Source of the DNA: an uncultured bacterium
GTDB taxonomy: Bacteria; Actinomycetota; Actinomycetes; Mycobacteriales; CAJCIY01
DNA length: 64,000 nucleotides
Direction: 5' to 3'
Assembly (NCBI GenBank): GCA_964245825.1
Contig: CAXTNT010000002.1
Location: forward strand, 223,728 to 287,727
Below, in pieces: positions 5,306 through 29,970 of this stretch. The position numbers and the translations under genes are program-made. Position 1 is the stretch's first letter. Each line of letters starts with the position of its first letter. The notes beneath the pieces are model-generated. The model had not been told where the DNA came from and searched no databases. It worked only from the letters and a program-made list of their open reading frames with translations.

Positions 5306-5346
5306 CCGCCGCCGCTGCCGAGCTACGGCGCGAGCCCGAGCTCTCG

Positions 5347-10242: not shown

Positions 10243-10274
10243 TCGCACTGCACGACCCGAGGAGAGGACCACCC

Positions 10275-10733: not shown

Positions 10734-10788
10734 GGCGCTGGTTTCTCGGCGCCGGAAGACGCTCGCGAGCGGCTGGCGCCGGAGCTGC

Positions 10789-11232
10789 TCAGTTGATCAG
10801 GAAGGCCGGGAAGTCGGGTGCGGCGGCGCGGAGGGCCTCGTCGGTGGAGTCGGCCTTCAGGCCGGGGAAGAACTGCCCGACCTCGAAGCCCCAGCGGCGC
10901 AGGTACTCCCGCAGCACCGGTGGCTTGGCGTCGTCGGTGAGTTCGACGACGGTGATCGCCTCGGTACGCCGGCCCAGGCGCAGCTCGCCGCCGCCGGCCG
11001 CCCGGATGTTGCGTACCCACTGGGTCTGACCGCGGGGGGCGACGAGGTGGCGCCGGCCGTCGAGGCTGAGCACGTTGACGGGGGTGCTGCGCCACTCGCC
11101 GGTGCTGCGGCCGCGTACCCGCAGCTCCCGAGAGCCCACGAGGCTGATGCCGAGCCGGGCAAGCCCGCGGACGAGCGGGTTGAGGACGCGGCGGGTGAAG
11201 GGGTCCGGGGCGCGGTATCGGGGTTCGTCCAT
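10789..11232 (-). CDS. Nitroreductase-family deazaflavin (F420)-dependent oxidoreductase-like protein (DUF385)
   Basis: 147 aa with the conserved layout of the actinobacterial Ddn/DUF385 family (RRVLNPLVRGLARLG...TTGRRSGEWRSTPV...HLVAPRGQTQWVRNIRA). Confidence 0.7.
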   Translation of the reverse strand: MDEPRYRAPDPFTRRVLNPLVRGLARLGISLVGSRELRVRGRSTGEWRSTPVNVLSLDGRRHLVAPRGQTQWVRNIRAAGGGELRLGRRTEAITVVELTDDAKPPVLREYLRRWGFEVGQFFPGLKADSTDEALRAAAPDFPAFLIN

Positions 11233-11397
11233 GTGCTCTCCTCGTTTCTCGGCGGCGACCGCCGGCGCTTCCGGGCATCATCTGCTGTCGGCCTGGGGAT
11301 GCCAAGACGTCTGGCGTGGCTAGGTTGGGGAGGGCGCGCGGCGTCGGGCGCGAGGCGCTCGCCCCTGCCCTGCGTACCTGGGACACTCGCCGGTGCC

Positions 11398-11470
11398 GGG
11401 CCGTTAGCTCAACTGGCAGAGCAGCGGACTTTTAATCCGCGGGTTCTGGGTTCGACCCCCAGGCGGCCCA
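11398..11470 (+). tRNA. tRNA-Lys (anticodon UUU)
   Basis: GGGCCGTTAGCTCAACTGGCAGAGCAGCGGACTTTTAATCCGCGGGTTCTGGGTTCGACCCCCAGGCGGCCCA. It has a 7-bp acceptor stem (with one G-U pair), a D-loop, an anticodon loop cTTTTaa and a T-arm GGTTCGA. CCA is not fully encoded. Confidence 0.9.
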
Positions 11471-11496
11471 CCTACCGAAGGCCCACCTACCGAAGG
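11467..11496. repeat. 15-nt perfect tandem direct repeat (cccacctaccgaagg x2) overlapping the tRNA-Lys 3' end; att-core-like duplication
   Basis: Read directly; the first copy contains the last nucleotides of the tRNA acceptor stem. Confidence 0.8.
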
Positions 11497-11858
11497 TCAA
11501 CAGGCCCACTCTTACTGTGCGGGTACACCTGCCGCTTGACTGTGCTTCGGCTCATGCTTGACGCCTGATTCGGCCGTTCGTCGACACCCAGGGAGACCAG
11601 CGTGGCTGAGCAGAGGCATTGCTTCTGCTGCACCGTCGTCGACGCCAGCCAGTGACGTCCCCTGTGGTGGTCTAGCTCCTCGGGTCTCACGGAGTTGGTG
11701 ACCACGTGCGCTGTGGCCAGCGTGTGATGGTCAGCGAGACCACGCCAATGGTTCTCGCGGAAGGACACAGAGAGACCAGTGACGCCGTGTCCCATGCAGG
11801 CGTCTCCTTGTTATTGGCATCATGTGAGACCGAGCTGTCTACCGTCAGCAGTCGGCAA

Positions 11859-12566
11859 CTAAGGATCCTGTTCTCTATCCCGTGTTGCATGTCTTGCCGC
11901 TGCGTCAAGAAGGGTTTGTCTGATCTGAGCCCGACGAAGGTTCTCGGCGCTGTCACCCTCAACTGACGTTGATAGCCCTTGTGTTTGAAACGGGCCACCC
12001 TCGACGATCATCTCACGGTGGGGTGCAGGTTCGAGGCTGGCGTCGTACTTGCCCCGTTCGCTCTCCAGTCTCAGCACGATTATGTCTTTGACGGGTGCGG
12101 GCCAGACCTGAAAGAGGTACCTCTCAATGATGGGGTCGGGCGGCATCATCTGGTCGTCCTCGTTCTCGTACTCCTCAGTCATCACGACGCCGTCGTAATT
12201 TGCGTCTCGACCCCGAGCATGGACGCGGATGCGGTACGTACCGGGCCCGGCGGGACTCAGAACCGGGAACTCGTCGTCAACGTCCATGCCAAGCGCAGCG
12301 AAGCCGAGATCACCGGACGGTACCTCGATGCTCGCCTCGACGATGTCTTCCCAATCACCAGCATCTAGATCGGTCGGCGCGCTGGCGAGCACGTGCACAT
12401 CGACCCCGACAGGGCCAGCTGCTATGCCCGTGTTTATGTAGAGCGAGTGGGGAGAGACCCCGACTAACCCGTTGCCCGAAGTATCAGCCCAGGGAAAGGG
12501 AGCTTCCATGACGTCCCCGATGTAGAACTGGTGGTAGTCAACCGGAACTGTGCCCATGGGTTCCAT
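11859..12566 (-). CDS. Hypothetical acidic protein encoded in the lower-GC islet
   Basis: A 235-aa ORF, strongly acidic (D/E-rich), with non-repetitive protein-like composition. It lies in DNA of visibly lower GC than its surroundings. No recognisable family. Confidence 0.5.
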   Translation of the reverse strand: MEPMGTVPVDYHQFYIGDVMEAPFPWADTSGNGLVGVSPHSLYINTGIAAGPVGVDVHVLASAPTDLDAGDWEDIVEASIEVPSGDLGFAALGMDVDDEFPVLSPAGPGTYRIRVHARGRDANYDGVVMTEEYENEDDQMMPPDPIIERYLFQVWPAPVKDIIVLRLESERGKYDASLEPAPHREMIVEGGPFQTQGLSTSVEGDSAENLRRAQIRQTLLDAAARHATRDREQDP

Positions 12567-17700: not shown

Positions 17701-18498
17701 ATGTCGAGTGAGGCCTCCGCGGAACCCGTGCTCGTCGAGCGCGCGGAGGGCGTCGCGACGCTGACGTTGACCGGCCCGTCGCTGACCGCGCAGGCCAAGG
17801 ACGCGTTGCGTACGCAACTCCAGGACGTCGCCGCCGACTCCGCGATCCGCGCGGTGGTGCTGACCGGCTCGGGAAAGATCTTCTGCGCCGGCCAGGACCT
17901 GGGAGAGCATGCTCGAGCGCTGGAGTCCGGCTCTGCCGCGGCGTTCGAGACGCTCGCCCGCGACTACGAGCCGATCGTCACGACCCTGCTGATGATGCCG
18001 AAGCCGGTGGTAGCCGCGGTGAACGGCACCTGCGTCGGCGCGGGCCTGTCCCTCGCGCTCGCCTGCGACCTCCGGCTGGCCCGGAGCACCGCGACGTTCG
18101 CCACGGCCTTCACCGCCATCGGGCTGTCGTTCGACAGCGGCCTGTCCGCGACCTTGGCGCGCGCCATCGGCACCGCGCGAGCCAGCGAGCTGATGCTGCT
18201 CGGTAGCAGGATCTCGGCGGAGACCGCGCTCGCCTGGGGACTGGTCGGCACGGTGGTCGAGGAGGCCGACTGGGACGGCACCGTGCGCGAGGTCGCGGGC
18301 CGACTCGCCACCGGCCCCACCCAGGCGTACGTCGCAGTCAAGCGGGCCATCGCCGCGGCGTGGTCCGCCTCGCTGCCGGACGTGTTCGACGCCGAGCGCG
18401 CGGCGCAGATCGACCTGGGCGGTACGGCCGACCACCGGGCCGCCGTGGCGGCCTTCCTGGCCAAGCGGCGCCCGACCTTCGACGGCCGGCCGCCGTAG
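17701..18498 (+). CDS. Enoyl-CoA hydratase/isomerase (crotonase) family, probable PaaG-type enzyme of the phenylacetate pathway
   Basis: A crotonase fold (VLTGSGKIFCAGQDL, AAVNGTCVGAGLSLALACDLRLA); it sits directly upstream of paaABCDE. Confidence 0.8.
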   Translation: MSSEASAEPVLVERAEGVATLTLTGPSLTAQAKDALRTQLQDVAADSAIRAVVLTGSGKIFCAGQDLGEHARALESGSAAAFETLARDYEPIVTTLLMMPKPVVAAVNGTCVGAGLSLALACDLRLARSTATFATAFTAIGLSFDSGLSATLARAIGTARASELMLLGSRISAETALAWGLVGTVVEEADWDGTVREVAGRLATGPTQAYVAVKRAIAAAWSASLPDVFDAERAAQIDLGGTADHRAAVAAFLAKRRPTFDGRPP

Positions 18499-18525
18499 TC
18501 TGCTTCAGACGCGAAGGAGCGTGGC

Positions 18526-19485
18526 ATGGCGCAGGTGCTCGACAACGACAGCGCATCGCCCGCGCTGACCGAAGGGTTCGAGGCGACCATCGCCCGGGAC
18601 CGCCGGATCGAGCCCCGCGACTGGATGCCCGAGGCGTACCGGAAGACCATGATCCGCCAGATCGCGCAGCACGCGCACTCGGAGATCATCGGCATGCAAC
18701 CCGAGGGCAACTGGATCACCCGCGCACCCTCCCTGCGGCGCAAGGCGATCCTGCTGGCCAAGGTCCAGGACGAGGCCGGACACGGCATGTACCTCTACTC
18801 CGCCGCCGAGACCCTCGGCGCCGACCGCGCCGACCTCACCGACAAGCTGGTGCACGGCCGGCAGAAGTACTCCTCGATCTTCAACTACCCCGCCCTCAGC
18901 TACGCCGACGTCGGCGTCATCGGCTGGCTCGTCGACGGCGCAGCGATCTGCAACCAGGTCCCGCTGTGTCGCAGCAGCTACGGCCCGTACGCCCGCGCCA
19001 TGGTCCGCATCTGCAAGGAGGAGTCCTTCCACCAGCGGCAGGGCTACGAGCTGCTGCTGACGATGATGCGCGGGACGGCGGCCCAGCGGGCCATGGTCCA
19101 GGCCGCGGTCGACCGCTTCTGGTGGCCGTCGCTGATGATGTTCGGGCCGCCTGACGAGGCGTCGCCGAACACGGCGCAGTCGATGGCCTGGGGCGTGAAG
19201 CGGCACACCAACGACGAGCTGCGGCAGCGGTTCGTGGACATGTCCGTCCCGCAGGCCGAGCAGCTCGGCGTCACCCTCCCCGACCCCGCGCTGCGCTGGA
19301 ACGACGAGCGGGGCAGCTACGACTTCGGGGCGGTCGACTGGGCCGAGTTCGACGCCGTGGTCAGGGGCGACGGCCCCTGCAACGCCCAGCGCGTCGCGCA
19401 CCGCAAGGCGGCGCATGACGACGGCGCGTGGGTACGGGCGGCCGCCAGTGCGCACGCCGCGAAGACGCAGGGGGCGAGACGATGA
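18526..19485 (+). CDS. paaA: 1,2-phenylacetyl-CoA epoxidase subunit A
   Basis: A di-iron monooxygenase subunit with the typical PaaA sequence ([25 protein letters not shown]). Confidence 0.9.
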
Positions 19486-19522
19486 GTGCGCACGCCGCGA
19501 AGGCGCAGGGGGCGGGCCGGTG
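19447..19522. repeat. 38-bp imperfect tandem duplication spanning the paaA stop and paaB start
   Basis: agtgcgcacgccgcgaagacgcagggggcgagacgatg / agtgcgcacgccgcgaaggcgcagggggcgggccggtg. Copy 1 ends at the paaA TGA and copy 2 ends in the paaB GTG. Confidence 0.85.
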
Positions 19523-19882
19523 AGCGAGCTCGCGGCGGAGGGCGGCCACGGCGCCGTGCCGCTCACCGGCATTCCCGTTGCGCCGCAGGCAGCTGCGGTG
19601 CGTTCCGACTGGCCGCTGTACGAGGTGTTCCTGCGCGGCAAGCGGGGCCTCAACCACGTGCACGTCGGGTCGCTGCATGCCGCCGACCCGGTGATGGCGC
19701 TGCACCATGCCCGCGACCTGTACACCCGCCGCAACGAGGGCGTCAGCATCTGGGTCGTCCCGAGCGCGGCCATCACGGCCAGCAGCCCCGACGAGAAGGA
19801 CCCGTTCTTCGCCCCGGCGGCCGACAAGGTCTATCGGCACCCGACGTTCTACGTCATCCCCGACGACGTCCCGCACATGTGA
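19520..19882 (+). CDS. paaB: 1,2-phenylacetyl-CoA epoxidase subunit B
   Basis: A PaaB-family small subunit (WPLYEVFLRGKRGLNHVHVGSLHAADPVMALHHARDLYTRR). The GTG start is created by the second copy of a 38-bp tandem duplication. Confidence 0.85.
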   Translation: MSELAAEGGHGAVPLTGIPVAPQAAAVRSDWPLYEVFLRGKRGLNHVHVGSLHAADPVMALHHARDLYTRRNEGVSIWVVPSAAITASSPDEKDPFFAPAADKVYRHPTFYVIPDDVPHM

Positions 19883-20775
19883 GCGGTGTGGCCATCAGCA
19901 ACGACGAGAGCGTCTACCGGTCGCTCGCCGAGCAGGGCGAGGACCACCGCTGGGCGTTCGGCACCGGCTTCACCGATCCCCTCGAGGGCGTGGACACCAC
20001 GGTGCCCGCCGGCGTCGACGGCGCGGCGCTCGCCGCGTACTGCCTGATGCTCGGGGACGACGCGCTGATCTACTCGCATCGGCTGCAGCAGTGGATGACC
20101 CGCGCGCCGGAGCTGGAGGAGGAGACCGCGCTCGGCAACATCGCGCTGGACCTGCTCGGCGAGGCCAGGCTGCTGCTCTCCCGGGCGGGTCGGGCGGACG
20201 GCACCGGCCGGGACGAGGACGCCCTGGCCTTCTTCCGCGACGAGCGCGACTTCCGCAACGTCCGGCTCGTCGAGCGCCTGGACGCGGACTTCGCCGAGCT
20301 CATCGGCCGGCTGCTGGTGTTCTCCTGCTGGCGGCTCGCGCTGTTCGACCGCCTCCGCGACAGCCGCGACCCGGTCCTGGCCGCCATCGCCGGCAAGGGC
20401 GTCCACGAGCTGACCTACCACCGCGACTACGCGGCGCAGTGGGTCGTTCGGCTGGGGGACGGGACCCCCGAGTCCCACCGCCGCATGCAGTCCGCGCTGG
20501 ACGTCCTCTGGCCGCTGGTCGACGAGCTGTTCACCGGCCACCCGGTCGAGTCCGCGCTCCCCGGGGTCGCCGCGGCGGCGGCCGGGCTGCGGGTCGAGGT
20601 GGACCTCGTCCTCGACACCGTGCTGGCCGCAGCCGGTCTCGACCGGCCCGAGGTGCGGCCACTGGCGGGCGTCGGCGGCCTGGCCGGTCGCGACGGTCTG
20701 CACACCGAGGCGATGGGCTACCTCCTGGCCGAGTTGCAGAGCGTCGCCCGGGCCGACCCGGAGGCGACCTGGTGA
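19879..20775 (+). CDS. paaC: 1,2-phenylacetyl-CoA epoxidase subunit C
   Basis: A GTG start overlapping the paaB stop. It is a PaaC-like ferritin-fold protein, consistent with its position in the operon. Confidence 0.8.
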   Translation: MSGVAISNDESVYRSLAEQGEDHRWAFGTGFTDPLEGVDTTVPAGVDGAALAAYCLMLGDDALIYSHRLQQWMTRAPELEEETALGNIALDLLGEARLLLSRAGRADGTGRDEDALAFFRDERDFRNVRLVERLDADFAELIGRLLVFSCWRLALFDRLRDSRDPVLAAIAGKGVHELTYHRDYAAQWVVRLGDGTPESHRRMQSALDVLWPLVDELFTGHPVESALPGVAAAAAGLRVEVDLVLDTVLAAAGLDRPEVRPLAGVGGLAGRDGLHTEAMGYLLAELQSVARADPEATW

Positions 20776-21275
20776 GCGCACCGGCCAGCGCGGACGCCTG
20801 GGCCGTCGCCGCGGCCGTGCCCGACCCGGAGCTGCCGATGGTGACCCTCGCCGACCTCGGCATCCTGCGCGACGTCGAGACGGTGGGAGAGACGGTCACG
20901 GTGACCATCACGCCCACGTACACCGGCTGTCCGGCGATGGCGGAGATGGGCCGGGACCTGCGCAACCGCCTGCGGCAGAAGGGCTTTCTCCATGTCACGG
21001 TACGCACGGCACTCGCCCCCGCCTGGAGTAGTGACTGGATCACGCCAGCGGGCCGGGCGAAGCTGGCGGCCGCCGGGATCGCACCCCCGAACGCCGCCCG
21101 GCGCCAGGACGGCCCGATCCCGCTGACGCTGGTCGCGCGCCCGCGCACGGTCCGCTGCCCATACTGCGGCGCCGCGGAGACCCGGCAGACGGCAGCGTTC
21201 AGCGCCACCGCGTGCAAGGCGCTCTACCGGTGCGAGCGCTGCGACGAGCCGTTCGAGTACGTCAAGGAGCTCTGA
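20772..21275 (+). CDS. paaD: 1,2-phenylacetyl-CoA epoxidase subunit D (SufT/DUF59-like)
   Basis: A GTGA overlap with paaC. It has the C-terminal Cys cluster (CPYCG...CERCDEPFEY) and the DUF59 core (TVTITPTYTGCPAMAEM). Confidence 0.85.
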   Translation: MSAPASADAWAVAAAVPDPELPMVTLADLGILRDVETVGETVTVTITPTYTGCPAMAEMGRDLRNRLRQKGFLHVTVRTALAPAWSSDWITPAGRAKLAAAGIAPPNAARRQDGPIPLTLVARPRTVRCPYCGAAETRQTAAFSATACKALYRCERCDEPFEYVKEL

Positions 21276-21278
21276 GCT

Positions 21279-22328
21279 TTGGCCCGCCCCGACTTCCACG
21301 CCCTGCGCGTTGCCGCGGTCGATGCCCTCACCGACGACGCCGCCGCCGTGACCTTCGCCGTTCCGGACGCCCTCGCCGACCTGTTCGCCTTCGCGCCCGG
21401 ACAGTCCCTGACCCTCGAGGTCGGCGGGGAGCGCCGTTCGTACTCCATCTGCGCACCCGTCGGTCACCCGCCGCGCATCGGTGTGCGCGTGGTCGAGGGA
21501 GGCGCCGTCAGCGGCTGGCTGGTCCGCGCGGCGCGAACCGGCGACGTGGTGGCGGTCCAGCGTCCGGCCGGGTCCTTCACCCCCGACCTGGGCGTACCGG
21601 GTCACCACGTGCTCATCGCCGCCGGCTCCGGCATCACGCCCATGCTGTCGATCGCGGCGTCGGTGCTGGCGGCGAGCCCGGACTCCGGCGTGACCCTGCT
21701 GTACGGGAACCGGCGCAGCGACTCGGTGATGTTCGCCGACGAGATCGCCGACCTGAAGGACGCGTACCCGACGCGGATGCGGCTGGTGCACGTGCTGTCG
21801 CGGGAGCCGCAGGAGGTCGAGCTGTTCAGCGGACGCCTCGACGCCGACAAGCTGCGGGCGCTGCTGCCGGTGACCGTCGAGGTGGCGGACGTCGACCACT
21901 GGTGGCTCTGCGGTCCCTACGGCCTGGTCGCCGGCGCGATCGACGTCCTCGCCGGCCTCGGGGTGCCGAGGGACCGGGTGCACCGCGAGCTGTTCTACGT
22001 CGAGGACGACCCGCCGGCGGCGGCCCGGCACGACGAGGCGCCGATCGGGGTAGGGGCCGAGGTCACCGTGGTGCTGGACGGGCGCAGCACCACGGTCCTG
22101 GTGGCCCCGGGTACGCCGGTGCTCGACGGCGCCCAGCGGGTGCGGCCCGATCTGCCGTTCGCCTGCAAGGGCGGCGTCTGCGGGACGTGCCGGGCGCGGG
22201 TCACCGCCGGCGAGGTCCGGATGCGGCGCAACTTCGCGCTCGAACCGGCCGAGGTCGAGGCCGGCTTCGTGCTGACCTGCCAGGCCGTGCCGGTGTCGGC
22301 CACCGTGACGGTCGACTTCGACTCCTGA
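21279..22328 (+). CDS. paaE: Phenylacetyl-CoA epoxidase reductase subunit (FNR-like FAD/NAD module plus plant-type 2Fe-2S ferredoxin)
   Basis: A TTG start. It has the FAD motif RSYSI, an NAD motif (LIAAGSGITP) and a C-terminal 2Fe-2S domain (CKGGVCGTC...C). Confidence 0.85.
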   Translation: MARPDFHALRVAAVDALTDDAAAVTFAVPDALADLFAFAPGQSLTLEVGGERRSYSICAPVGHPPRIGVRVVEGGAVSGWLVRAARTGDVVAVQRPAGSFTPDLGVPGHHVLIAAGSGITPMLSIAASVLAASPDSGVTLLYGNRRSDSVMFADEIADLKDAYPTRMRLVHVLSREPQEVELFSGRLDADKLRALLPVTVEVADVDHWWLCGPYGLVAGAIDVLAGLGVPRDRVHRELFYVEDDPPAAARHDEAPIGVGAEVTVVLDGRSTTVLVAPGTPVLDGAQRVRPDLPFACKGGVCGTCRARVTAGEVRMRRNFALEPAEVEAGFVLTCQAVPVSATVTVDFDS

Positions 22329-22425: not shown

Positions 22426-23172
22426 CTACTGGTGCTTCCAGGCCACCGTGAAGGTCTCGTGGTGGGTGTTCAGGCTGCCTGGCTTGGCCTGCGTGACCCC
22501 GTTCAGCATCTCGGTCACCGCCGAGGTGGTGTGCGTGTTGATGTACGCACCGTCGAGCACCGTGTCGGAGAACGTCACCGTTCCGAAGCCGGCCAGGCTG
22601 TAGAACGGAACCTCGAGGTTGCCGGTCAGGAACTGGTTGTCGATCTCGGCCTGCGGGCCGTCGTCGATGTACGCCTCGGCTCCGGTCGTCTCGTCGTAGG
22701 CGTAGACGTCTGTCTCCGAGTTGCTCTCGTAGACGTAGGTCTGCACCCGGTCACCGGGTGCAGCCGCGGCCGTGTTTATCTGGTTGTTGCGGACGTCGTA
22801 GGCCTGCAAAGCCGCGGTCGCCATGCCGTGGCTGCACCCGTACGCGACGAGGGCCTGCGCGTTGTACGCCTTGGCGGTGGTGAAGCCGACCGTACCCAGG
22901 AACGCGTAGCCGTCCTTGGAGCAGTGGGTGGGGATGGTGAACTGGGAGTACGAGTAGTAGTCGGCCCCGGGCTTGCTGATATACCCGGCCCCGAGCGTGG
23001 TCTTGCCCGCCTTCGCAACGGCCGCCGGGCGCAGGCCCGAGGTGTGCGGCATCGCCGCGACGGGAGCGGGGCGGGTCTGGTGGAGGCTGGCCGCACCGGC
23101 TGAGCTGCCGATCAGCAGCAGTGCCAGTCCGGCGCCGGCGGCGGCCACGGTGGGAAGTACGCGAGCGAACAT
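22426..23172 (-). CDS. Secreted protein, possibly a G1/peptidase-A4 (eqolisin)-like fold
   Basis: A signal peptide (MFARVLPTVAAAGAGLALLLIGSSAGAAS) followed by a beta-rich domain. Its motifs (SQFTIP, ATAALQ, AEAYIDDG, LAGFGTVTFSDT) resemble scytalidoglutamic-peptidase blocks (TGEFTVP, TAILQ, AEFIIEDFE, FADFGSVTF). It lies downstream of the S8 peptidase gene on the same strand. The family assignment is tentative. Confidence 0.45.
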   Translation of the reverse strand: MFARVLPTVAAAGAGLALLLIGSSAGAASLHQTRPAPVAAMPHTSGLRPAAVAKAGKTTLGAGYISKPGADYYSYSQFTIPTHCSKDGYAFLGTVGFTTAKAYNAQALVAYGCSHGMATAALQAYDVRNNQINTAAAAPGDRVQTYVYESNSETDVYAYDETTGAEAYIDDGPQAEIDNQFLTGNLEVPFYSLAGFGTVTFSDTVLDGAYINTHTTSAVTEMLNGVTQAKPGSLNTHHETFTVAWKHQ

Positions 23173-23273
23173 CGAAACTCCTATGGTGAGTGCGAGCACG
23201 GGGTCGGGTCTCCGCCCCGTGCTGATAGGAGGCGATGGGGGTCGCGCTGATACGTCGCGGCCAGCCGGTCGGG

Positions 23274-24569
23274 TCAGTAGCCCCGAGGGTCGGGGTCGTA
23301 GGTCATGCCCGGCTCGGCCACCGCACCCACTCCTGGGGTCGCGTTCCGCAGCGCGAGCCGGAGGATCGAGTCAGCGGCCTGCCGACCGCTCTGACCCGTG
23401 TTCGACATCCGGGCCGCGATCATCCCGGCCACGATCGGAGTCGAGAAGGAGGTGCCGCTCCAGGTGGCCATGCCGTTGCTGAACTCGGCGGTCTGCCCGA
23501 TGCGCGGTGGCTCCCGGTAGAGGTACGTGCCGTCGGGATAGGCGTTGACGATGTCGCGTCCGACGGCGTACACGTCGACCCAGCTGCCGTGGTCGGAGAA
23601 GTCGGCGCGGGTTCCGTCTCGTTCCAGCGCGCCGACGGAGACGGCCCAGGGAAAGGCGGCGGGCCAGAACGGCTGCCGGCTGCTGTTATTGCCCGCCGCT
23701 GCGACCAGGACTGCGCCCTTGGCGTACCGCAGCCTGTGCTCCCAGAGGACCTCGAACCCCAGCGGCGGCAGGTCGTGGCGGGTCGTGCCGCCTGCGGACA
23801 TGCTGATCACGTCGGGCGTCCGGTCCATGGCGTGGGCCAGCTGACGGAGCATGCCGGACTCCGTGACGGCACCGGCCCGGTTGAGCAGGTCCTCCACGTG
23901 CACGTCGGCGTACGGCGCCAGACACCGGACGACCCCGGCCACGAACGTGCCATGTCCGACGTACGGACCGATGTCCGTCGGATCGTACGGCTCCGGCTGC
24001 CCGGTGACGCCGGACAGCCAGCCGTGCTGGGCGTCTTCCAGGGCCAGGATCAGACCGGTGTCCACGACCTCGACCCGACACCCCTGACCACCGGCGCCGC
24101 CGGCCGGGGCGAGGGAGACCGGCGGGTCCGGATCGACGGACGGGACGGGCGTGGGCTCCGTCGCCGGGCAACAGCTGCGGGGTGTGACGTAGAAGATGTG
24201 GTCAGGGGTCGCGATGCCGACGCCGAGGGCCGCGTCGATCGCCGCTAGCGCGGCCAACGTCGTCAGCCCCTCGGGCGCATAGGCGGTCAGGCCGTTCACC
24301 AGCGCGTCGACGACCCGGCCCGGGACTTCCGCGCGTACCCGCTCGAGGTCCTCGTCACGAACCAGGATGCGGCCTTCGACATAGAGGTACTCCATGTCCG
24401 CCGGCCGCCCCGGCGGGTAGACCGCCGCGCCCTCGATCGCCGACAGGATGAGCTCGACCTGGATCCCCAGTCGTTCGCGCTGCCAGTCCCGCCCCGGCCG
24501 CTGGCGGCCGCCGTCACCGGGCTGGCCGCGTTTCGCCACGGAGCCGCCGCTGTCGGCCATCGCGATCAC
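23274..24569 (-). CDS. S8-family serine peptidase (subtilase) with no signal peptide, predicted cytoplasmic
   Basis: Catalytic triad blocks: D (VEVVDTGL), H (HGTFVAGVV) and S (GTSFSTPIVAG). There is an N-terminal ~130-aa non-catalytic domain with no hydrophobic leader. Confidence 0.85.
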   Translation of the reverse strand: MIAMADSGGSVAKRGQPGDGGRQRPGRDWQRERLGIQVELILSAIEGAAVYPPGRPADMEYLYVEGRILVRDEDLERVRAEVPGRVVDALVNGLTAYAPEGLTTLAALAAIDAALGVGIATPDHIFYVTPRSCCPATEPTPVPSVDPDPPVSLAPAGGAGGQGCRVEVVDTGLILALEDAQHGWLSGVTGQPEPYDPTDIGPYVGHGTFVAGVVRCLAPYADVHVEDLLNRAGAVTESGMLRQLAHAMDRTPDVISMSAGGTTRHDLPPLGFEVLWEHRLRYAKGAVLVAAAGNNSSRQPFWPAAFPWAVSVGALERDGTRADFSDHGSWVDVYAVGRDIVNAYPDGTYLYREPPRIGQTAEFSNGMATWSGTSFSTPIVAGMIAARMSNTGQSGRQAADSILRLALRNATPGVGAVAEPGMTYDPDPRGY

Positions 24570-24687
24570 CTCGTTCGCAGGGAAAAGCGATGTCTACCAT
24601 CGCGACGTGGCAGCGGAAAGGTCCGGCAGCGTCGCCGACGTCCAGGCCACCGCACCCCGATGGCCAGCGGGACCGGACCTCCTGGCG

Positions 24688-27243
24688 ATGGCTCTGTCGA
24701 CTCCCGCGCAGGCGCTCGAGCTGGCCCACCGAACCCTGGCGGCGGATCCCGATGACGGCGCCGCGTCCTATGCGCACCAGGCGGCCGGCATCGTGCTGCG
24801 TGATCGAGGGGAGCTGTCCACGGCGTTGCCCGAGCTGCGTGCCGCGCTCCGTAGTGCGCGCCGGTCCGGCGCACGCGAACGTGTCGTCGACGTCCAGGCG
24901 ACGCTGGGCGCCGCGGAGGCGATGGCCGGCCACAGCGGGCGGGGTCTGGCCCGGCTGGAGTCGGCTGCCCAGGATGCCCATGGCTTGCTGCTGGCCACGG
25001 TGCGGCTCCGGCGGGCGTACGTACTGGGTGACCTCGGCCGGTTCGAGGAGGCGCTGCGCGATCTCCGGTTGGCACTGCGGGCAGCACGTCGGTGCGGAGA
25101 CCGGCTCTGGGAGGCGCGCATCCTCCACAACCGCGCGTGGACCTGGCTCGCCATCGGAGCGCTGGGCCGAGCCGATGCGGATGCAGCCGCCGCCGGGCGC
25201 CTGTTCGACCAGCTGGGTCAGACGTTGGAATCGGTGCAGGCTCAGCACAATCGGGCCGCCGTGGCCGCGGGGCGGGGGGACCTCCCACGAGCGCTGCACC
25301 TGCTGGACGCCGCGGAGTCCCGGTACCAGACACTCGGGGTCTTCGAGCCGGAGCTGGTCGTCAACAGGGGGCACGTCCTGCTCGCGGCAGGGCTCGCCAC
25401 GGAGGCCGCGGCCGCGGCCGAGGCCGCGATCGTGGGGGGCACGTCGCACCCCGTCCACCACGCCGAGCTCCTGCTGTTCGCGGCCAGGGCGGCCCTGGCG
25501 GCCGAGCAGCCCGAGCGCGCGCAGCGGTGGGCCCGCGCCGCGCTCCGGCTCTTCAAATCCCAGCAGCGTCCCGGCTGGGTGCTGCGGGCGCGGCTCCTGC
25601 ACTGCCAGGCCCGGTACGCCCACGGCGACCGGACACACCGGCTTCTCGCCGCGGCGGCGCAGGTCGCCGAGCAGCTGCGCGAGCGCGACGACGAGGAGGC
25701 CGCCTTGGCCTTCCTGCTCGCCGCCCGGCTGGCGCAGGCCCGGGGCCAGGACGCACTGGGTGCGTCGAGCCTGCGAAGCGCGGCGGGCTACCGCCGGCGC
25801 GGGTCGGCCCTGACGCGCGCCACCGGATGGCTGGCGGCAGCCATGGAGCATGCGTCGGTCGGTGACGAGCGGGGTCTGCTGTCCGCCTGCGGGCGGGGGC
25901 TCGACGCGCTGGACGAGCACCGGCTGCTGTTCGGCGCCGCCGAGATCCGGGCCATCGCCACCTGGCACGGCCGCGATCTGGCCTCCTTCGCCATCGACGC
26001 CGCCAGTCGGCGGGCCTCCCCTCGCTTGATGCTGACCTGGACCGAGCGCTCCCGCGCGATCTCGCTGGCCGAGCCGTCGGTGCGGGCACAGCCCGACCCC
26101 GAGCTGGAGCAGGAGCTCGGCGCCGTCCGCGACGCGGCGAGGCGTTGTGCGGACGCGGAGCGGAGCGGCGCCGGAGTGACGAGCGCGCTGCAGCAACGCG
26201 ACGCTGGCGAGCGCGCGGTACGCCGGCGGCGTCGCCAGCTCTCGGGCTCCACCGGCTCGGTCCCGCGGCTCGACATCGAGCTCCTGTTGGCGGAGCTCGG
26301 GGCCGCCACGCTGCTTTCGCTGGTGGAGACGGGCGGGCGCCTGCAGGTGTTGCAGGTCGGCCACGGTCGGGTGCGCCGGCATGACGTCGGACCGGTCTCC
26401 GCTGCGGTCAGGGAGCTCGACTACGTGCTGTTCGCCCTGCGCCGGGCCGCGTACGGGCGCGCCGGCGGGACGGCGGCGCTGGCTGCCCGGCTGGAGCAGG
26501 CGGTGCTCGGAGCTGTCGGACGGGTTGTGCCCGACGGTCCCGTGGTCGTGGTGCCGTCCACCCGGTTCCACGCCCTGCCGTGGGGATTGCTGCCCGCACT
26601 GGCAGACCGGCCGGTGGCGGTGGCGCCGTCGGCGCAGGTGTGGCAACGCGCGGCCTGCGCCGCCACGCGTCCGTGCCCGGACCGACGGGTGCTGCTGGTC
26701 GCCGGACCCGACCTGGGAACCCGAGCCGCCGAGGTCGTCGCGCTGGCGTCGGTGCACGCGTCGCCAGAGGTGGTCGGTCGTGCGGCAGCTGCCCCCGCTG
26801 CCACCGTCGACCGCGTCGTGGCCGGCATGAACGGCGCCTGGGTCGCGCACATTGCTGCGCACGGCGACTTCCGCGCCGACAGCCCGCTGTTCTCCTCGGT
26901 ACGACTCGACGACGGCGCGCTGTTCGTGCACGACCTCGACCGGGTCCGGCAGGCGCCCCGCACCGTCGTGCTGTCCGCGTGCGAGACCGGGGTCGGGGTC
27001 CCGGTAGGTACGCAGGAGCTGCTCGGACTGGTCAGCGGCCTGCTGCGGGCGGGGACCGCGAGCGTGTGTGCCAGCGTCGTGCCGGTACACGACGCTGCGG
27101 CGATCCCCATCGTGTCGGCCGTGCACCGGGCCCTGGCCGACGGCAGGACGCTGCCGGAAGCGGCCCTGGCCGGTCGGCGCGCCGCAGCCGGCGACGAGCT
27201 GGCGGTCTGCACCGCCGCCTCGTTCAGCGTCTGGGGTGCCTAG
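24688..27243 (+). CDS. Tetratricopeptide-like helical repeat protein with a C-terminal CHAT (caspase-like) domain
   Basis: About 600 aa of Ala/Leu/Arg-rich TPR-like repeats, then a CHAT domain with a His/Cys dyad (GAWVAHIAAHGDF ... VVLSACETGVG). It is transcribed divergently from the S8 gene (118-bp spacer). The start is taken as the first ATG after the spacer; an upstream GTG is possible. Confidence 0.8.
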   Translation: MALSTPAQALELAHRTLAADPDDGAASYAHQAAGIVLRDRGELSTALPELRAALRSARRSGARERVVDVQATLGAAEAMAGHSGRGLARLESAAQDAHGLLLATVRLRRAYVLGDLGRFEEALRDLRLALRAARRCGDRLWEARILHNRAWTWLAIGALGRADADAAAAGRLFDQLGQTLESVQAQHNRAAVAAGRGDLPRALHLLDAAESRYQTLGVFEPELVVNRGHVLLAAGLATEAAAAAEAAIVGGTSHPVHHAELLLFAARAALAAEQPERAQRWARAALRLFKSQQRPGWVLRARLLHCQARYAHGDRTHRLLAAAAQVAEQLRERDDEEAALAFLLAARLAQARGQDALGASSLRSAAGYRRRGSALTRATGWLAAAMEHASVGDERGLLSACGRGLDALDEHRLLFGAAEIRAIATWHGRDLASFAIDAASRRASPRLMLTWTERSRAISLAEPSVRAQPDPELEQELGAVRDAARRCADAERSGAGVTSALQQRDAGERAVRRRRRQLSGSTGSVPRLDIELLLAELGAATLLSLVETGGRLQVLQVGHGRVRRHDVGPVSAAVRELDYVLFALRRAAYGRAGGTAALAARLEQAVLGAVGRVVPDGPVVVVPSTRFHALPWGLLPALADRPVAVAPSAQVWQRAACAATRPCPDRRVLLVAGPDLGTRAAEVVALASVHASPEVVGRAAAAPAATVDRVVAGMNGAWVAHIAAHGDFRADSPLFSSVRLDDGALFVHDLDRVRQAPRTVVLSACETGVGVPVGTQELLGLVSGLLRAGTASVCASVVPVHDAAAIPIVSAVHRALADGRTLPEAALAGRRAAAGDELAVCTAASFSVWGA

Positions 27244-27273
27244 CCGGCGGGTCGACACCCAGCCGAGCGGCGT

Positions 27274-27741
27274 TCAGAGGCGTACCCACGCGGTGGTGAT
27301 GCGGCGTCCTCCGAGTCGGAAGCGTACGAGGGCGTCGGGAACGGTCGCGAACGCGAAGCGCGCATCCGCGTCGACGACCGACGTGACGAGCGCTCCGTCG
27401 GCCGCTTCGAGCACGACCTCCGTGACCTCTCCGGCGGCGACGCCGTCGACGAGGCCGAGCAGGGAACGCCGACCCCCGTCCCCGACGACCTGGATGTCGA
27501 TCGTGATCCCCGCGCACTGGAACGACACCAGCCGTATCTCGGCCGCCCCGGCACGGACGGTGCCGGCAGCGGTGAGGGAGTCGGCCACCAGCGTCGCCAG
27601 CTCGTCGTCGAGATGGCGCCGACCGAAGACGCCGCGGCCGAGCTCGTAGGTCAGCTCGGGAACGGGATCGATCACGCGGGCGATGTCAGCCAGCCGCGCG
27701 AGCAGGTCCTCTTCCTCGGGCGACGACGTCGGTCCGGTCAC
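27274..27741 (-). CDS. Hypothetical protein co-transcribed with the ECF sigma factor (candidate anti-sigma/regulatory partner, no TM segment)
   Basis: 155 aa with protein-like composition; the overlapping alternative ORFs are R/P/S-rich junk. Its start overlaps the sigma-factor stop by 4 nt. Confidence 0.55.
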   Translation of the reverse strand: MTGPTSSPEEEDLLARLADIARVIDPVPELTYELGRGVFGRRHLDDELATLVADSLTAAGTVRAGAAEIRLVSFQCAGITIDIQVVGDGGRRSLLGLVDGVAAGEVTEVVLEAADGALVTSVVDADARFAFATVPDALVRFRLGGRRITTAWVRL

Positions 27742-28391
27742 GGTGATCCCTCCGCTGTGGCGGTGCCGAAGGCGTAGCCGCTGGCGGCCAGCAGCTCACG
27801 CAGCCGGTCGAGGCAGCGCATGCGGGTGGGTCCGATGGAGCCGATCGGCAGGCCCAGCGCGGTCGAGATCTCGGCGTAACTGGTGCGCTCGACCGACATC
27901 AGGACGCGGAGCAGGGTCTGGCATCGCGCGGACAGCCCGCCGAAGCTCTGCCACAGGGCGGCGTCGCGCTCGGCCAGGAGCAGGTGATGGTCGACGGGTG
28001 GTGCCCCCTCGTCCGGGACCTCGAGCATGGCCTCGTCACTCCACTCGGGTGCTTCCCGCCCGGACCGCCTGAGCGTCGCCAGACATTCGCGCCGCGCCGT
28101 CGTCGCCAGCCAACCGGCCAGCGTCTCCGGATCGCGGATGGTGTCGAGGTTCTCCAACAGCCGGAGCCAGGTCGTCTGGATGACGTCGGCCGCAGCGCCG
28201 GTGTCGAGCCGGTACGCCCGGCCTATCGACCAGAGCAGGTTGGTGAACCGGTCGACGAGGAGGTTCCACGCGAGCTCGTCGCCGTCCGCGGCTCGTCGCA
28301 CGAGCTCCGTCAGGTCGTCGGGTGCCGGCACGACGGAGTCGTCCTCACAGGAGCTGACCCACCTCGCAGTCCCGACCGCACAGCTCATCAT
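27738..28391 (-). CDS. ECF-type (sigma-70 family) RNA polymerase sigma factor
   Basis: Sigma region 2 (LVRRAADGDELAWNLLVDRFTNLLWSIGRAY ... DVIQTTWLRL) and a region 4 helix-turn-helix (SYAEISTALGLPIGSIGPTRMRCLDRLR). Confidence 0.85.
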   Translation of the reverse strand: MMSCAVGTARWVSSCEDDSVVPAPDDLTELVRRAADGDELAWNLLVDRFTNLLWSIGRAYRLDTGAAADVIQTTWLRLLENLDTIRDPETLAGWLATTARRECLATLRRSGREAPEWSDEAMLEVPDEGAPPVDHHLLLAERDAALWQSFGGLSARCQTLLRVLMSVERTSYAEISTALGLPIGSIGPTRMRCLDRLRELLAASGYAFGTATAEGSP

Positions 28392-28531
28392 GGCATCCGA
28401 CGCATCCCGTCTGGGTTCCGCCCGCCGCCGACGACGAACACGTGAACGAGAGGCGCGGGTGACGCGGGTGATACATCCCGTCTCCCTCTCGTCCGGGCAA
28501 ACCGGGCGGGCACGCCTCTAGGGTCGGTGCC

Positions 28532-29272
28532 GTGCGCGGTCCGGCGGTCTCCGACCCGATGACCGACGCGATGTCCGAGGACGCCGTCTGCCTGGCCCTG
28601 CTGGCCGCCGGTGCCCTGAGCGTGCGGGACGTCGACGCCGGCGAGGAGCCCTTCCTGTACAGCTCGGGCAACCACGGACCCGGGTACGTGATGGTGAAGG
28701 CGCTGGTCGCACGGCAGGCCGTGTTCCGGGCGCTGATCGACGCCCTGGCCGCGAAGCTCATCGACGCCGGGGTGCCCTTCGACCACGTCATCGGCAACGC
28801 GACCGGCGGGATGATCCCGGCGTACGCGCTCCGGGAGGCCTACCAACGCCGTAGCGGCCGGACCGACGTGGAGTACGTGTACGTGCGGGGCGCTCGGAAG
28901 GAGGGCGGTCACCGCGAGCTGGTCACCGGACTCGAGCACATCGCCCCGCGTACGCAGGCCGGCGCGCCATCCTCCTGGCTCGTCGTGGAGGACATGGTCA
29001 ACTTCGCCGAGACCCCGGTGAACTCGCTGCTGCTGCTGCGCAGTCTCGGCTTCGTGGCCCGGGAGGCCGCCGCGATCCTGCACGTCGACCAGCCCGAGGG
29101 GAACCGGCGGCTGCGCGCGCACGATGTCCGCCTGACCACCCTGACCTCCATGCCCCGACTGCTGGACGTCGCCGTCCGGGAGGGGTACGCCGGTCGCAGC
29201 GCCGTCGAGGGATACCGCGCCTACCTCGAGGACCCGGGCGGCTGGCAGCGGGCCAGGGGCCTCGGCGGATGA
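28532..29272 (+). CDS. Orotate-phosphoribosyltransferase-like type I PRTase with a degenerate PRPP loop
   Basis: It has the PyrE-like hood (EPFLYSSGNHGPGYV) and a flexible-loop region YVRGARKEGGHRELVTG that aligns with the PyrE loop (VRKSAKAHG..LIEG). The PRPP motif reads LVVEDMVNFAETPVNS instead of the canonical VVDDVxTTG. The start is uncertain (three in-frame Met candidates). Confidence 0.65.
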   Translation: MRGPAVSDPMTDAMSEDAVCLALLAAGALSVRDVDAGEEPFLYSSGNHGPGYVMVKALVARQAVFRALIDALAAKLIDAGVPFDHVIGNATGGMIPAYALREAYQRRSGRTDVEYVYVRGARKEGGHRELVTGLEHIAPRTQAGAPSSWLVVEDMVNFAETPVNSLLLLRSLGFVAREAAAILHVDQPEGNRRLRAHDVRLTTLTSMPRLLDVAVREGYAGRSAVEGYRAYLEDPGGWQRARGLGG

Positions 29273-29970
29273 GCCTGCTGTACGTCGGCCTCGACGGCGG
29301 CAAGCGGGAGGGCAACCTGGCGCTTGCCCATGAGCTGGCCGCGACCACCGACGGCGAGATCGGGTTCAAGGTCAACCTGGACCATGCGCTGGTGTGGGGG
29401 GAGTCGTACATCGCCGCGGTCGTCGCCTTGGGGCGCCCCGTGTTCGTCGACCTCAAGATGAACAACGGTCCGCGCACGATGAGCACGGTGGTGCGGTGGC
29501 TCGGCAGTCTCGGCGTGACGCACACCGATGTCTGGGCGTACGCCGAGAGCAACCTCACCCGGACCCTCGAGGAGCTGGCGGGGGTCACCGACCGGCCGGC
29601 CATCTTCGCGGCGACCTTCTACACCCGGTGGGACGAGGCGTACGCCCAGACGCATCACCGGATGTCGGTGGACGCGCTGATCGGCCACTGGGCGCGGGTG
29701 GCCGTCGAGCACGGCGCAGAGGGGGTCATCGTCCCCGCCACGCGGCTGGTGGCCCTCGGCGACCTGTCCACCGTCCGGATGAGTCCCGGCATCCGGCTGC
29801 CCGGGCAGCGGACGGGGAGTGCCCAGCAGCACGTCGCCACACCCGGGGAGGCACTGCTCGCCGGTGCGGACATCCTGGTGATGGGCAGCCCCATCCAACA
29901 GGCTCCGGACCCCGTCGCGGCGCTCGCCGAGGTGCTCGCCGCGATGCGCCGGGTCGAGGCGGCATCCTGA
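29269..29970 (+). CDS. Orotidine-5'-phosphate-decarboxylase-like TIM-barrel protein (OMPDC suprafamily)
   Basis: VGLDGG ... FKVNLD ... VFVDLKMNNGP gives the D-x-K-x-x-D-like catalytic arrangement. It is 233 aa and overlaps the PRTase-like gene by 4 nt. Confidence 0.65.
   Translation: MSLLYVGLDGGKREGNLALAHELAATTDGEIGFKVNLDHALVWGESYIAAVVALGRPVFVDLKMNNGPRTMSTVVRWLGSLGVTHTDVWAYAESNLTRTLEELAGVTDRPAIFAATFYTRWDEAYAQTHHRMSVDALIGHWARVAVEHGAEGVIVPATRLVALGDLSTVRMSPGIRLPGQRTGSAQQHVATPGEALLAGADILVMGSPIQQAPDPVAALAEVLAAMRRVEAAS

Follow-up and report, generated by a model that had tools for sequence, protein, structure and literature searches.

A candidate ECF54-type signalling module of subtilase, TPR-CHAT protease, ECF sigma factor and small partner protein, conserved among actinobacterial loci

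The window analysed here is a 64-kb stretch of DNA with a GC content of about 72%. It holds five adjacent genes set between two groups of metabolic genes, the paa operon and phosphoribosyltransferase/OMP-decarboxylase-like genes. These five genes, first proposed from the sequence, encode a secreted protein, an S8 subtilase, a TPR-CHAT protease, a 155-aa protein, and an ECF sigma factor. All of the open reading frames are present at the coordinates originally given, with a GC3 of 0.85-0.90 that is the signature of coding sequence.

The TPR-CHAT gene (24688-27243, plus strand) encodes an 851-aa protein identical to the recorded protein P0004 (NCBI/ENA sources). A Pfam search finds a CHAT domain (PF12770, E=1.4e-23), in which the predicted dyad of His725 (AHIAAHG) and Cys765 (LSAC) is aligned by the profile and invariant in 62 homologues; at least 457 homologues were found, and the best 120 are mostly full-length. 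The AF2 model (pLDDT 89.7, pTM 0.83) consists of about 26 N-terminal helices, with a TPR array of 520 residues, followed by a C-terminal alpha/beta caspase-like CHAT domain. Its best Foldseek matches are separase (1.4e-14), Csx29 (2.9e-13), and DdvA (8rot_A, 6.3e-12), with TM-scores of only 0.26-0.54, which are low because the repeat arrays differ. Since the predicted CHAT structure is closest to these three proteins, the comparison with Csx29 made in the original prediction is an apt one. As modelled, the 851-aa protein is a separase/craspase-type TPR-CHAT protease with an intact dyad.

Transcribed divergently from it is the S8 subtilase gene (23274-24569, minus strand), whose product has 431 aa if translated from GTG 24569 and 428 aa if translated from ATG 24560. 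The 118 bp previously stated for the intergenic region (24570-24687) holds with the first of these starts, while the second gives 127 bp. The protein matches Peptidase_S8 (PF00082, E=2.8e-24) and contains an N-terminal domain about 150 aa long and a conserved CCPxTEP junction motif. The catalytic triad Asp170 (VVDTG), His206 (GHGT), and Ser374 (SGTSFS) and the oxyanion Asn294 (AAGNN) follow the order of the family, and 64 homologues conserve them. The sequence as read begins with no recognisable signal peptide, in agreement with the leaderless, cytoplasmic subtilase that had been proposed. PADLOC returns only a generic subtilase match for this protein.

The ECF sigma factor (27738-28391, minus strand; 217 aa) contains only the sigma2 and sigma4 regions, and its initial identification is borne out by matches to Sigma70_r2 (PF04542, residues 45-112, E=5.9e-12) and TIGR02937 (residues 41-201, E=5.2e-16), together with a weak match to Sigma70_r4_2. 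Its stop codon overlaps the GTG start of the gene for the 155-aa protein (27274-27741, minus strand), and the junction reads GTGA instead of the ATGA first reported. This partner is identical to the recorded protein P0001 and has thousands of homologues in 2,207 representative clusters, which confirms it as the product of a real gene and, contrary to the initial view that it belonged to no known family, places it in a large one. The C-terminal half of the family weakly matches PF13620 (CarboxypepD_reg) in 17 of 53 members, with the window copy below threshold. The structure prediction called for at the outset gives a confident helical hairpin (helices 8-24 and 29-59), a linker of lowest confidence (60-68), and a confident 7-strand Ig-like (CarboxypepD_reg-like) sandwich. 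Conservation is highest in the hairpin and not in the sandwich. The linker carries a near-invariant Val62-Arg63, where Arg63 is 97% conserved even though the length of the linker varies.

No canonical anti-sigma factor, either membrane-bound or zinc-binding, is encoded beside the sigma gene, and the only gene coupled to it is that of the 155-aa protein. This protein has no HxxxCxxC zinc-binding motif, no hydrophobic segment, and no anti-sigma match in Pfam. With only two helices and without HxxxCxxC, it is therefore not a canonical anti-sigma domain. Sequence and profile searches found no relative of it in the PDB, which includes entries containing Csx30 such as 8eey.

The conservation of the region was assessed in 80 related actinobacterial loci around the CHAT gene, all of them Actinomycetota where taxonomic labels are present. 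The S8, TPR-CHAT, ECF sigma, and 155-aa protein genes lie within about 5 kb of each other in 70 of the 80, from sources that include Kribbella, Nocardioides, Marmoricola, Streptosporangiaceae, Nonomuraea, Actinoplanes, Micromonosporaceae, Nocardiopsis, and others, so that the neighborhood is not confined to one genome. The module is built from two fixed pairs that are joined in at least four arrangements. In one, S8/TPR-CHAT, CHAT has the S8 gene immediately upstream in 79 of the 80 loci. In the other, the sigma gene comes before that of the partner, and their junction is most often a 4-nt overlap (18 cases, 16 of them GTGA). Beyond these four families none is found in more than 12 of the 80 loci, and the gene for the secreted protein is absent from all 80; the conserved unit is thus one of four genes and not of five, as had been supposed.

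Chance could in principle explain five neighboring genes that are unrelated and share no function, given that the flanks are unrelated metabolic genes and that one of the five is an orphan. The four genes nevertheless stay linked in 70 of 80 loci, which span several actinobacterial families and differ in gene arrangement, and a promoter motif is common to the module loci, which makes this explanation barely credible. For the four core genes, chance juxtaposition is already refuted by the linkage and neighborhood counts.

Every one of the 70 complete loci has the partner gene in the orientation of the sigma gene and second in the pair, which is the anti-sigma position noted originally. This gene position makes the 155-aa protein a candidate soluble anti-sigma factor. 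A different role would follow if there were no anti-sigma factor at all and the proteases processed or degraded the sigma factor itself, with the 155-aa protein as a protease adaptor, substrate, or regulator. Reviews describe ECF54 as lacking an anti-sigma factor and suggest control by neighboring proteases (PMC8999054, PMC7826278), the partner shows no canonical anti-sigma features, peptidases use sandwiches of the CarboxypepD_reg type as accessory domains (Pfam family description), and in a type III-B system the protease PCaspase cuts the sigma factor directly (10.1101/2023.06.23.546230). However, an accessory of the proteases would not be expected from a gene that occupies the classical anti-sigma position without exception, that stays with the sigma factor rather than with the proteases when the pairs are rearranged, and whose product is most conserved in the helical hairpin instead of the sandwich. 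Direct processing of the sigma factor is accordingly considered unlikely, and the partner is treated below as a candidate anti-sigma factor.

A promoter position weight matrix (PWM) was derived from the regions upstream of the sigma genes, which share an ECF-type motif, TGTATCA-N14/15-CTC(C/T)GT. The core GTATC is present upstream of sigma in 58 of 71 sequences (70 loci and the window), and the PWM finds the motif there in 49 of the 70 loci. At a threshold of at least 16 bits, 138 sites occur in 1.68 Mb, as against about 8 expected from shuffles. Only two sites of at least 12 bits exist in the 64-kb window; ten shuffled versions of it yielded 0-1 sites of at least 16 bits. The stronger of the two precedes the sigma-partner operon as GATGTATCA-N14-CCTCTCGT (28446-28477, minus strand, 20.4 bits). 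As the sigma gene carries a conserved promoter of the ECF type, it is probably autoregulated, judging by sequence.

The motif is also found ahead of various flanking cargo genes, including those of an M10 matrixin and a second S8 protease. A promoter search upstream of the S8 and CHAT genes, suggested with the original prediction, gave a divided answer: the motif precedes S8 at 22 sites in other loci, within the S8/CHAT intergenic region and facing S8, but it never precedes CHAT (0 of 138 sites). In the window, the best PWM score in the S8/CHAT region (24480-24760) is -0.8 bits, and neither gene has a sigma-type promoter, so the feedback arm is not universal.

These promoters bear on the possibility that the S8 and TPR-CHAT proteases are outputs, induced as effectors by a sigma factor that answers to another cue, while the partner is an ordinary anti-sigma factor released by housekeeping proteases. 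The effector roles named for such an arrangement are stress proteolysis, abortive infection, and programmed cell death. Some defence systems employ CHAT and S8 proteases as effectors, a role with which the generic PADLOC subtilase match would agree, and both the 22 sites upstream of S8 and the further proteases among the motif-driven cargo fit proteases that are induced. Yet the motif is missing from every CHAT gene and from the S8 gene of the window, the adjacency of S8 and CHAT (79 of 80 loci) is kept more strictly than the S8 promoter, and a 520-residue TPR array joined to CHAT is the sensor or scaffold architecture of separase, Csx29, and DdvA. A purely effector role for the two proteases is for these reasons regarded as rather improbable.

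The second promoter of the window, also predicted, follows the S8 stop codon and precedes the start of the secreted-protein gene as GACGTATCA-N14-CCTCCTAT (23225-23256, minus strand, 17.9 bits), with a -10 element that is off consensus (CTCCTAT). The gene that follows (22426-23199, minus strand; GC3 0.90) encodes 257 aa from GTG 23199, while the recorded protein P0272 has 248 aa from ATG 23172, and the N-terminus, MFARVLPTVAAAGAGLALLLIGSSAGAAS, resembles a signal peptide. Neither Pfam nor NCBIfam has a family matching the protein at E<=0.1, PADLOC gives no match, the PDB has no sequence match at E<=10, and among 5.8 billion proteins it has no homologue except itself. The G1/eqolisin-like label that it had been given finds no support in these searches. 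By these comparisons the secreted orphan is a lineage-specific cargo gene and not a conserved member of the module, and it is a probable target of the sigma factor, apparently linked to the module only through the sigma-type promoter in front of it.

Taken together, the region is best explained as a single copy of a four-gene signalling module that is widespread in actinobacteria, of ECF54 type by its gene context, to which one probable lineage-specific target gene has been added. Of the earlier idea of a proteolytic signalling or defence cascade, the part retained is a dedicated module for proteolytic signalling in which a TPR-CHAT protease is combined with another cytoplasmic protease and with a sigma factor whose partner is co-translated.

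The mechanism proposed for this module has the TPR-CHAT protein as its sensor and the partner as a soluble anti-sigma factor whose proteolytic removal frees the sigma factor; as a whole, it is judged about equally likely to be right or wrong. With its two N-terminal helices, the partner would keep the sigma factor inactive. The TPR-CHAT protease would be made constitutively, sense a cytoplasmic signal through its TPR array, and set off the proteolytic loss of the partner, acting on it directly or by way of the S8 protease. Cleavage would most likely fall in the exposed linker of the partner around the near-invariant Arg63. Separase cuts after Arg; Craspase cleaves after Leu or Met and not after Arg, so that Arg63 as the cut site is only a guess. 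The freed sigma factor would then amplify its own operon, as well as S8 in many relatives, and turn on local cargo genes, here the secreted orphan; phage defence, envelope remodelling, and development are conceivable outputs. Support for this model comes from the close linkage of the four genes in 70 of the 80 loci, the sigma-first coupling with the partner, the shared promoter, the anatomy of the partner, the intact dyad and fold of CHAT, the conserved catalytic residues of S8, and the precedents described below. Set against it are a partner with neither canonical anti-sigma features nor a PDB relative, the lack of a recognisable anti-sigma factor stated for ECF54 (PMC7826278), the missing sigma-type promoter at both S8 and CHAT in the window and, at the orphan gene, a promoter whose -10 element departs from the consensus.

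If true, the cascade would resemble that of Craspase, Csx30, and its sigma factor. In that system an ECF-like sigma factor is blocked by Csx30 until the TPR-CHAT protease Csx29 cleaves the latter and so relieves the inhibition (PMC10028731). Both systems encode a TPR-CHAT protease with a His/Cys dyad beside an ECF-like sigma factor and a sigma-associated protein, and in the structural comparison Csx29 ranks among the top matches to the window protein (E about 3e-13). The two differ in that the TPR region is longer in the window protein, a second protease (S8) is obligatory in the module, and the partner, as compared by description, has 155 aa in a helical hairpin and an Ig-like sandwich, whereas Csx30 has several hundred residues with an annotated domain to residue 545 (PMC10028731). 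In addition, neither Cas7-11 nor any other CRISPR component is found among the conserved neighbors in the 80 loci, and the flanks of the window are metabolic; the activating signal of the module cannot be a target RNA bound by a Cas effector.

A second parallel is the DdvA-DdvS pair of Myxococcus xanthus, where TPR-CHAT is likewise coupled to the control of an ECF sigma factor and whose DdvA is a significant structural match (8rot_A, E=6e-12). DdvA is an anti-sigma factor with a TPR-CHAT domain, and caspase-like proteolysis is its proposed trigger (PMC11506125). Contrary to the module, DdvA is one transmembrane protein that combines a periplasmic TPR-CHAT region, whose CHAT active site is incomplete, with a zinc-binding three-helix anti-sigma domain. 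The module instead has CHAT on a cytoplasmic protein of its own whose dyad is intact, a soluble partner that lacks a zinc motif, and an additional S8 protease.

A similar logic, with two proteases or with a protease, an anti-sigma factor, and a sigma factor, is found in the SAVED-CHAT/PCaspase/PCc-sigma system (type III-B, Haliangium) and in CalpL-CalpT-CalpS. In the former, SAVED-CHAT activates a second protease that cleaves the sigma factor, while CalpL cleaves the anti-sigma factor CalpT (bioRxiv 10.1101/2023.06.23.546230); as in the model proposed here, cleavage begins with a protease linked to a sensor and proceeds in a cascade as far as a sigma factor. Their sensors, however, are SAVED domains that bind cyclic oligoadenylates and are tied to CRISPR or CBASS, and their second protease is a C14 caspase or Lon instead of S8. 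Among the 80 loci, no nucleotide-signalling genes are conserved beside the module.

The closest counterpart is ECF54. Although the original prediction could not match the combination to any described system, by sequence and context it is already catalogued as that of ECF54, whose published neighbors include subtilase, CHAT, and "carboxypeptidase" domains and whose regulation was proposed to be proteolytic (PMC8999054, citing Huang et al. 2015 and Casas-Pastor et al. 2021). The ECF classification papers recognise no anti-sigma factor for the group (PMC7826278). The module shares with ECF54 its actinobacterial origin, a minimal sigma2-sigma4 ECF, the lack of a membrane anti-sigma factor, and all three context domains (subtilase, CHAT, and carboxypeptidase-regulatory-like), a placement that rests on context and not on clade. 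A 4Fe-4S cluster protein is reported near ECF54 (Casas-Pastor et al. 2021), unlike here, where Pfam finds no Fe-S protein among the four conserved families around the CHAT gene. No experimental test of this module was found in the literature. The present comparison finds several features that go beyond the descriptions of ECF54 in the 2022 review and the 2021 classification, namely a small protein as a candidate anti-sigma factor, the TGTATCA-N14/15-CTCCGT promoter, a pattern in which this promoter is found on S8 and never on CHAT, and a variable cargo.

The S8 subtilase, the TPR-CHAT protein, the ECF sigma factor, and the 155-aa partner encoded directly after the sigma gene form a four-gene module conserved among Actinomycetota. 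At least 457 homologues of the CHAT protein were found, the best 120 of them mostly full-length, and an alignment of 15 of these homologues was used to fetch 80 related loci (L001-L080) from species-representative genomes, while 460 more relatives were not kept. All the taxonomically labelled loci belong to Actinomycetota and include Kribbella, Nocardioides, Marmoricola, Streptosporangiaceae, Nonomuraea, Actinoplanes, Micromonosporaceae, Nocardiopsis, and Jatrophihabitantaceae. When gene presence was scored by tblastn and then by family HMMs, S8 directly adjoined CHAT in 79 of the 80 loci (in the remaining one, a contig end interrupts the locus), and sigma and partner lay within approximately 5 kb of CHAT in 70. 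The neighborhood conservation by which the original prediction could be checked is therefore found for four genes together in 70/80 actinobacterial loci. The predicted five-gene unit shrinks to these four, since its secreted member is present in none of the 80. After clustering of all called proteins, the four core families were the only recurring ones, with the next commonest found in 12 loci, and no gasdermin, Fe-S protein, Cas protein, or nucleotide cyclase was among the conserved neighbors in the 80 loci. The module consists of two fixed pairs, S8/CHAT, which are almost always divergent, and sigma/partner, which are always co-oriented with sigma first, combined in at least four arrangements. 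Linkage that is kept through such rearrangement is strong evidence of joint function, and for the four core genes a chance juxtaposition is ruled out.

In several genomes the module is present twice, as in the tandem duplicate of L044 (CHAT at 4525-7095 and 10001-12511), and more than one copy is also found in the genomes of L011 and L057 (same Kribbella sancticallisti contig), L017 and L068, and L047 and L075. Promoter motifs are similar between the paralogous copies, so that cross-talk is conceivable.

In the window, with a GC content of ~72%, all five ORFs show a third-position GC bias of 0.85-0.90, the actinobacterial coding signature. Profile searches bore out three of the five labels first given to them: Peptidase_S8 (23274-24569, minus strand; E=2.8e-24), the TPR-CHAT protein (24688-27243, plus strand; CHAT E=1.4e-23, preceded by sub-threshold TPR matches), and the ECF sigma factor (27738-28391, minus strand; Sigma70_r2 5.9e-12, TIGR02937 5.2e-16), which is an ordinary minimal ECF protein by its Pfam and NCBIfam profiles. 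The overlap of the sigma stop with the start of the partner gene (27274-27741, minus strand), previously given as ATGA, reads GTGA in the sequence. Exact recorded counterparts, from sources that include NCBI and ENA, exist for the 851-aa CHAT protein (P0004), the 155-aa protein (P0001), and a 248-aa version of the secreted protein (P0272). The G1/eqolisin-like identity assigned to the latter (22426-23199, minus strand) was rejected, as it had no Pfam or NCBIfam match at E<=0.1, no PDB sequence match at E<=10, and no homologue but itself in a word-indexed search of 5.8 billion proteins. PADLOC returned a generic subtilase match and a marginal BovA match on CHAT, neither of which favors or excludes a defense role. 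The flanking metabolic genes are unrelated to the module: an enoyl-CoA hydratase and phenylacetate-catabolism genes (two PaaA/PaaC-family, one Fer2/NAD-binding reductase) at 17701-22328 (plus strand), and a phosphoribosyltransferase-domain protein overlapping an OMP-decarboxylase-family protein at 28532-29970 (plus strand). An EAL-domain protein and an aromatic amino-acid lyase lie farther out.

In the sequence ahead of the sigma genes, counts of bipartite words singled out GTATC paired with CTC(C/T)G. Of 71 sequences (the 70 loci and the window), 58 have GTATC upstream of sigma, and the promoter consensus is G-R-TGTATCA-N14/15-x-CTC(C/T)GT(A). Scanning the 80 loci with the corresponding PWM gave 138 sites of at least 16 bits in 1.68 Mb, against a background of ~8 extrapolated from ~0.3 sites per 64 kb in shuffles of the window. 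Sigma genes are preceded by 49 of these sites, S8 genes by 22, the partner by 4 (in loci without an adjacent sigma gene), and CHAT by none; the other 63 lie elsewhere, most of them flanking the module and many facing outward toward variable genes. The window holds exactly two sites of at least 12 bits, one before the sigma operon (28446-28477, minus strand; 20.4 bits) and one in the 74 bp separating the S8 stop from the secreted gene (23225-23256, minus strand; 17.9 bits). From the sites before sigma genes, that of the window included, it follows that the sigma factor very probably autoregulates. The secreted protein is probably a local target of sigma, which would explain why it was included in the original unit despite being unconserved. 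A promoter-motif search upstream of S8 and CHAT had also been proposed as a check, and it found no sigma-type site in the window's intergenic region between them. Across loci, the presence of the motif before S8 and its absence before CHAT suggest that CHAT acts upstream of sigma, with S8 at least partly downstream of it, as feedback or output. An alternative in which both proteases are outputs only would account for the S8 sites and would not account for the motif-free CHAT genes; it appears unlikely.

The neighboring genes that follow the motif are very diverse. Among their products are an M10 matrixin that carries both a peptidoglycan-binding domain and propeller repeats, another S8 that is likewise cytoplasmic, and proteins of the DUF6345, PhoX, PASTA-repeat, and APH-kinase-like (APH-family) types, as well as small or membrane proteins without family. 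Cargo genes directly follow promoters at L072:5721(+), L079:3466 and 5667(+), L043:7272(-), L015:7972(-), L067:13717(+), and L027:20362(-). Kribbella-type loci have a second strong sigma-type promoter (20-27 bits) just beyond the 3' end of S8, as at L005:8457-8640(+), with equivalents in L006, L007, L010, L011, L015, L017, L018, L019, L020, L022, L028, L032, L042, L074, and L008. In most of these S8 is on the opposite strand, so that the promoter is directed at it; L008 has both on one strand, with the second promoter upstream of S8. What follows this promoter is a conserved G-rich stretch of ~130 nt with no credible ORF, ending in a long perfect hairpin and folding at -79.4 kcal/mol (z=-4.96). 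This element has no Rfam match and is absent from the window; it could be an antisense transcript or a small RNA that depends on sigma.

The 155-aa partner, described at first as belonging to no known family, proved to have 2,207 matches at E<=1e-3 (1,051 at E<=1e-10) when a three-sequence profile was run on 1.84 billion representatives. Of the 150 best relatives listed, nearly all are 145-185 aa long, and PF13620 (CarboxypepD_reg) is matched by 17 of 53 family members. Structure prediction, proposed earlier as a check, gave a confident AF2 model (pLDDT 90.4) with helices at residues 8-24 and 29-59, a low-confidence linker, and a seven-strand sandwich. Conservation among 200 sequences is strongest at the helix residues L13, L17, P28, D45, L48, A49, L51, D54, and S55, and at Arg63, which is 97% conserved within a linker otherwise variable in length and sequence. 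Four loci (L037, L045, L053, and L080) keep S8, CHAT, and partner with no sigma gene adjacent. In these the partner gene itself directly follows the sigma-type promoter, which implies that a sigma factor from another locus acts on it in trans. The proteases might instead act on sigma itself, with the small protein as a protease accessory, a view implicit in the ECF literature, where no anti-sigma factor is seen; beside the sigma/partner pairing of the 70 complete loci and the conserved partner helices, this appears unlikely.

Both proteases have intact active sites. The CHAT dyad expected from the original prediction, His725 and Cys765, is invariant in 62 sequences, and Asp170, His206, Asn294, and Ser374 of S8 are conserved. 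The AF2 model of TPR-CHAT (pLDDT 89.7, pTM 0.83) shows approximately 26 helices followed by an alpha/beta domain, with human and yeast separase, Csx29 of Craspase, and the anti-sigma factor DdvA as best PDB matches (E 1e-14 to 6e-12). No signal peptide is visible in the S8 sequence. Between its ~130-residue N-terminal domain and the catalytic domain lies a CCPxTEP motif (residues 133-139; window 24153-24173, minus strand), near-invariant in the S8 homologues of L001-L080, which could be a processing, metal-binding, or docking site.

Four-gene linkage, the coupling of sigma and partner, active sites that are intact in S8 and CHAT alike, and the promoter motif with its distribution are shown, and they are consistent with a model, given roughly an even chance of being correct, in which the partner is a soluble anti-sigma factor removed by CHAT-triggered proteolysis, releasing sigma. 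The helical hairpin of the partner would bind and silence sigma, while TPR-CHAT, using its TPR array to sense a cytoplasmic cue, would cause cleavage of the partner, directly or via S8, at an exposed linker in which Arg63 is the obvious candidate. The freed sigma factor would then amplify the system and express the cargo.

The group closest to this module is ECF54, for which a review of non-canonical ECF factors (PMC8999054, with reference to Huang et al. 2015 and Casas-Pastor et al. 2021) reports a conserved context of carboxypeptidase, subtilase, and CHAT-domain proteins and says that proteolytic control without an anti-sigma factor has been proposed. The 2021 classification describes the group as actinobacterial, with no recognized regulator and a 4Fe-4S protein nearby (PMC7826278). 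The locus shares every tested feature of this context except the Fe-S neighbor, which is not conserved here. The combination, which the original prediction could not match, is therefore already catalogued, but its kind is defined bioinformatically alone, and full-text literature searches found no experimental study of an ECF54-type module.

ECF54 is among the few ECF groups without a known regulator, and the review and the 2021 classification list the protease-rich context and describe no mechanism. The new analytical elements, namely the promoter motif, the candidate anti-sigma factor with its candidate cleavage site Arg63, the CHAT/S8 asymmetry, and the variable cargo, turn that context into a testable circuit. 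The existence of the module would not surprise a specialist; its value is as a clean, testable case of caspase-like sigma control outside CRISPR. If the model holds, separase/craspase-type proteases control bacterial transcription without any CRISPR effector, the partner represents a new structural class of anti-sigma factor, and the module offers a protease-to-sigma switch, compact and orthogonal, that synthetic biology might exploit. Should the model be wrong, the locus is still a well-delimited example of a conserved, uncharacterized actinobacterial module.

Taken jointly, and more tentatively, the data can be read as a free-standing, CRISPR-independent counterpart of Craspase signaling, widespread in Actinomycetota. 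A separase-like TPR-CHAT sensor and a dedicated cytoplasmic subtilase would cut a soluble anti-sigma factor of a previously unrecognized class (a two-helix hairpin plus an Ig-like sandwich) at a near-invariant linker Arg. This would free an ECF sigma factor recognizing TGTATCA-N14/15-CTCCGT, which would drive itself, the subtilase, and a rapidly changing local cargo (exported proteins, with a candidate small RNA added in Kribbella), as a caspase-like immune or developmental switch. Among the functionally closest characterized systems are Craspase, where Csx30 blocks an ECF-like sigma factor and is cleaved by the TPR-CHAT protein Csx29 (PMC10028731), and DdvA-DdvS (PMC11506125), together with the SAVED-CHAT to PCaspase to sigma cascade and CalpL/CalpT/CalpS. 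Compared with these, the present module has no CRISPR or cyclic-nucleotide component, requires an S8 protease, and has a partner of different architecture.
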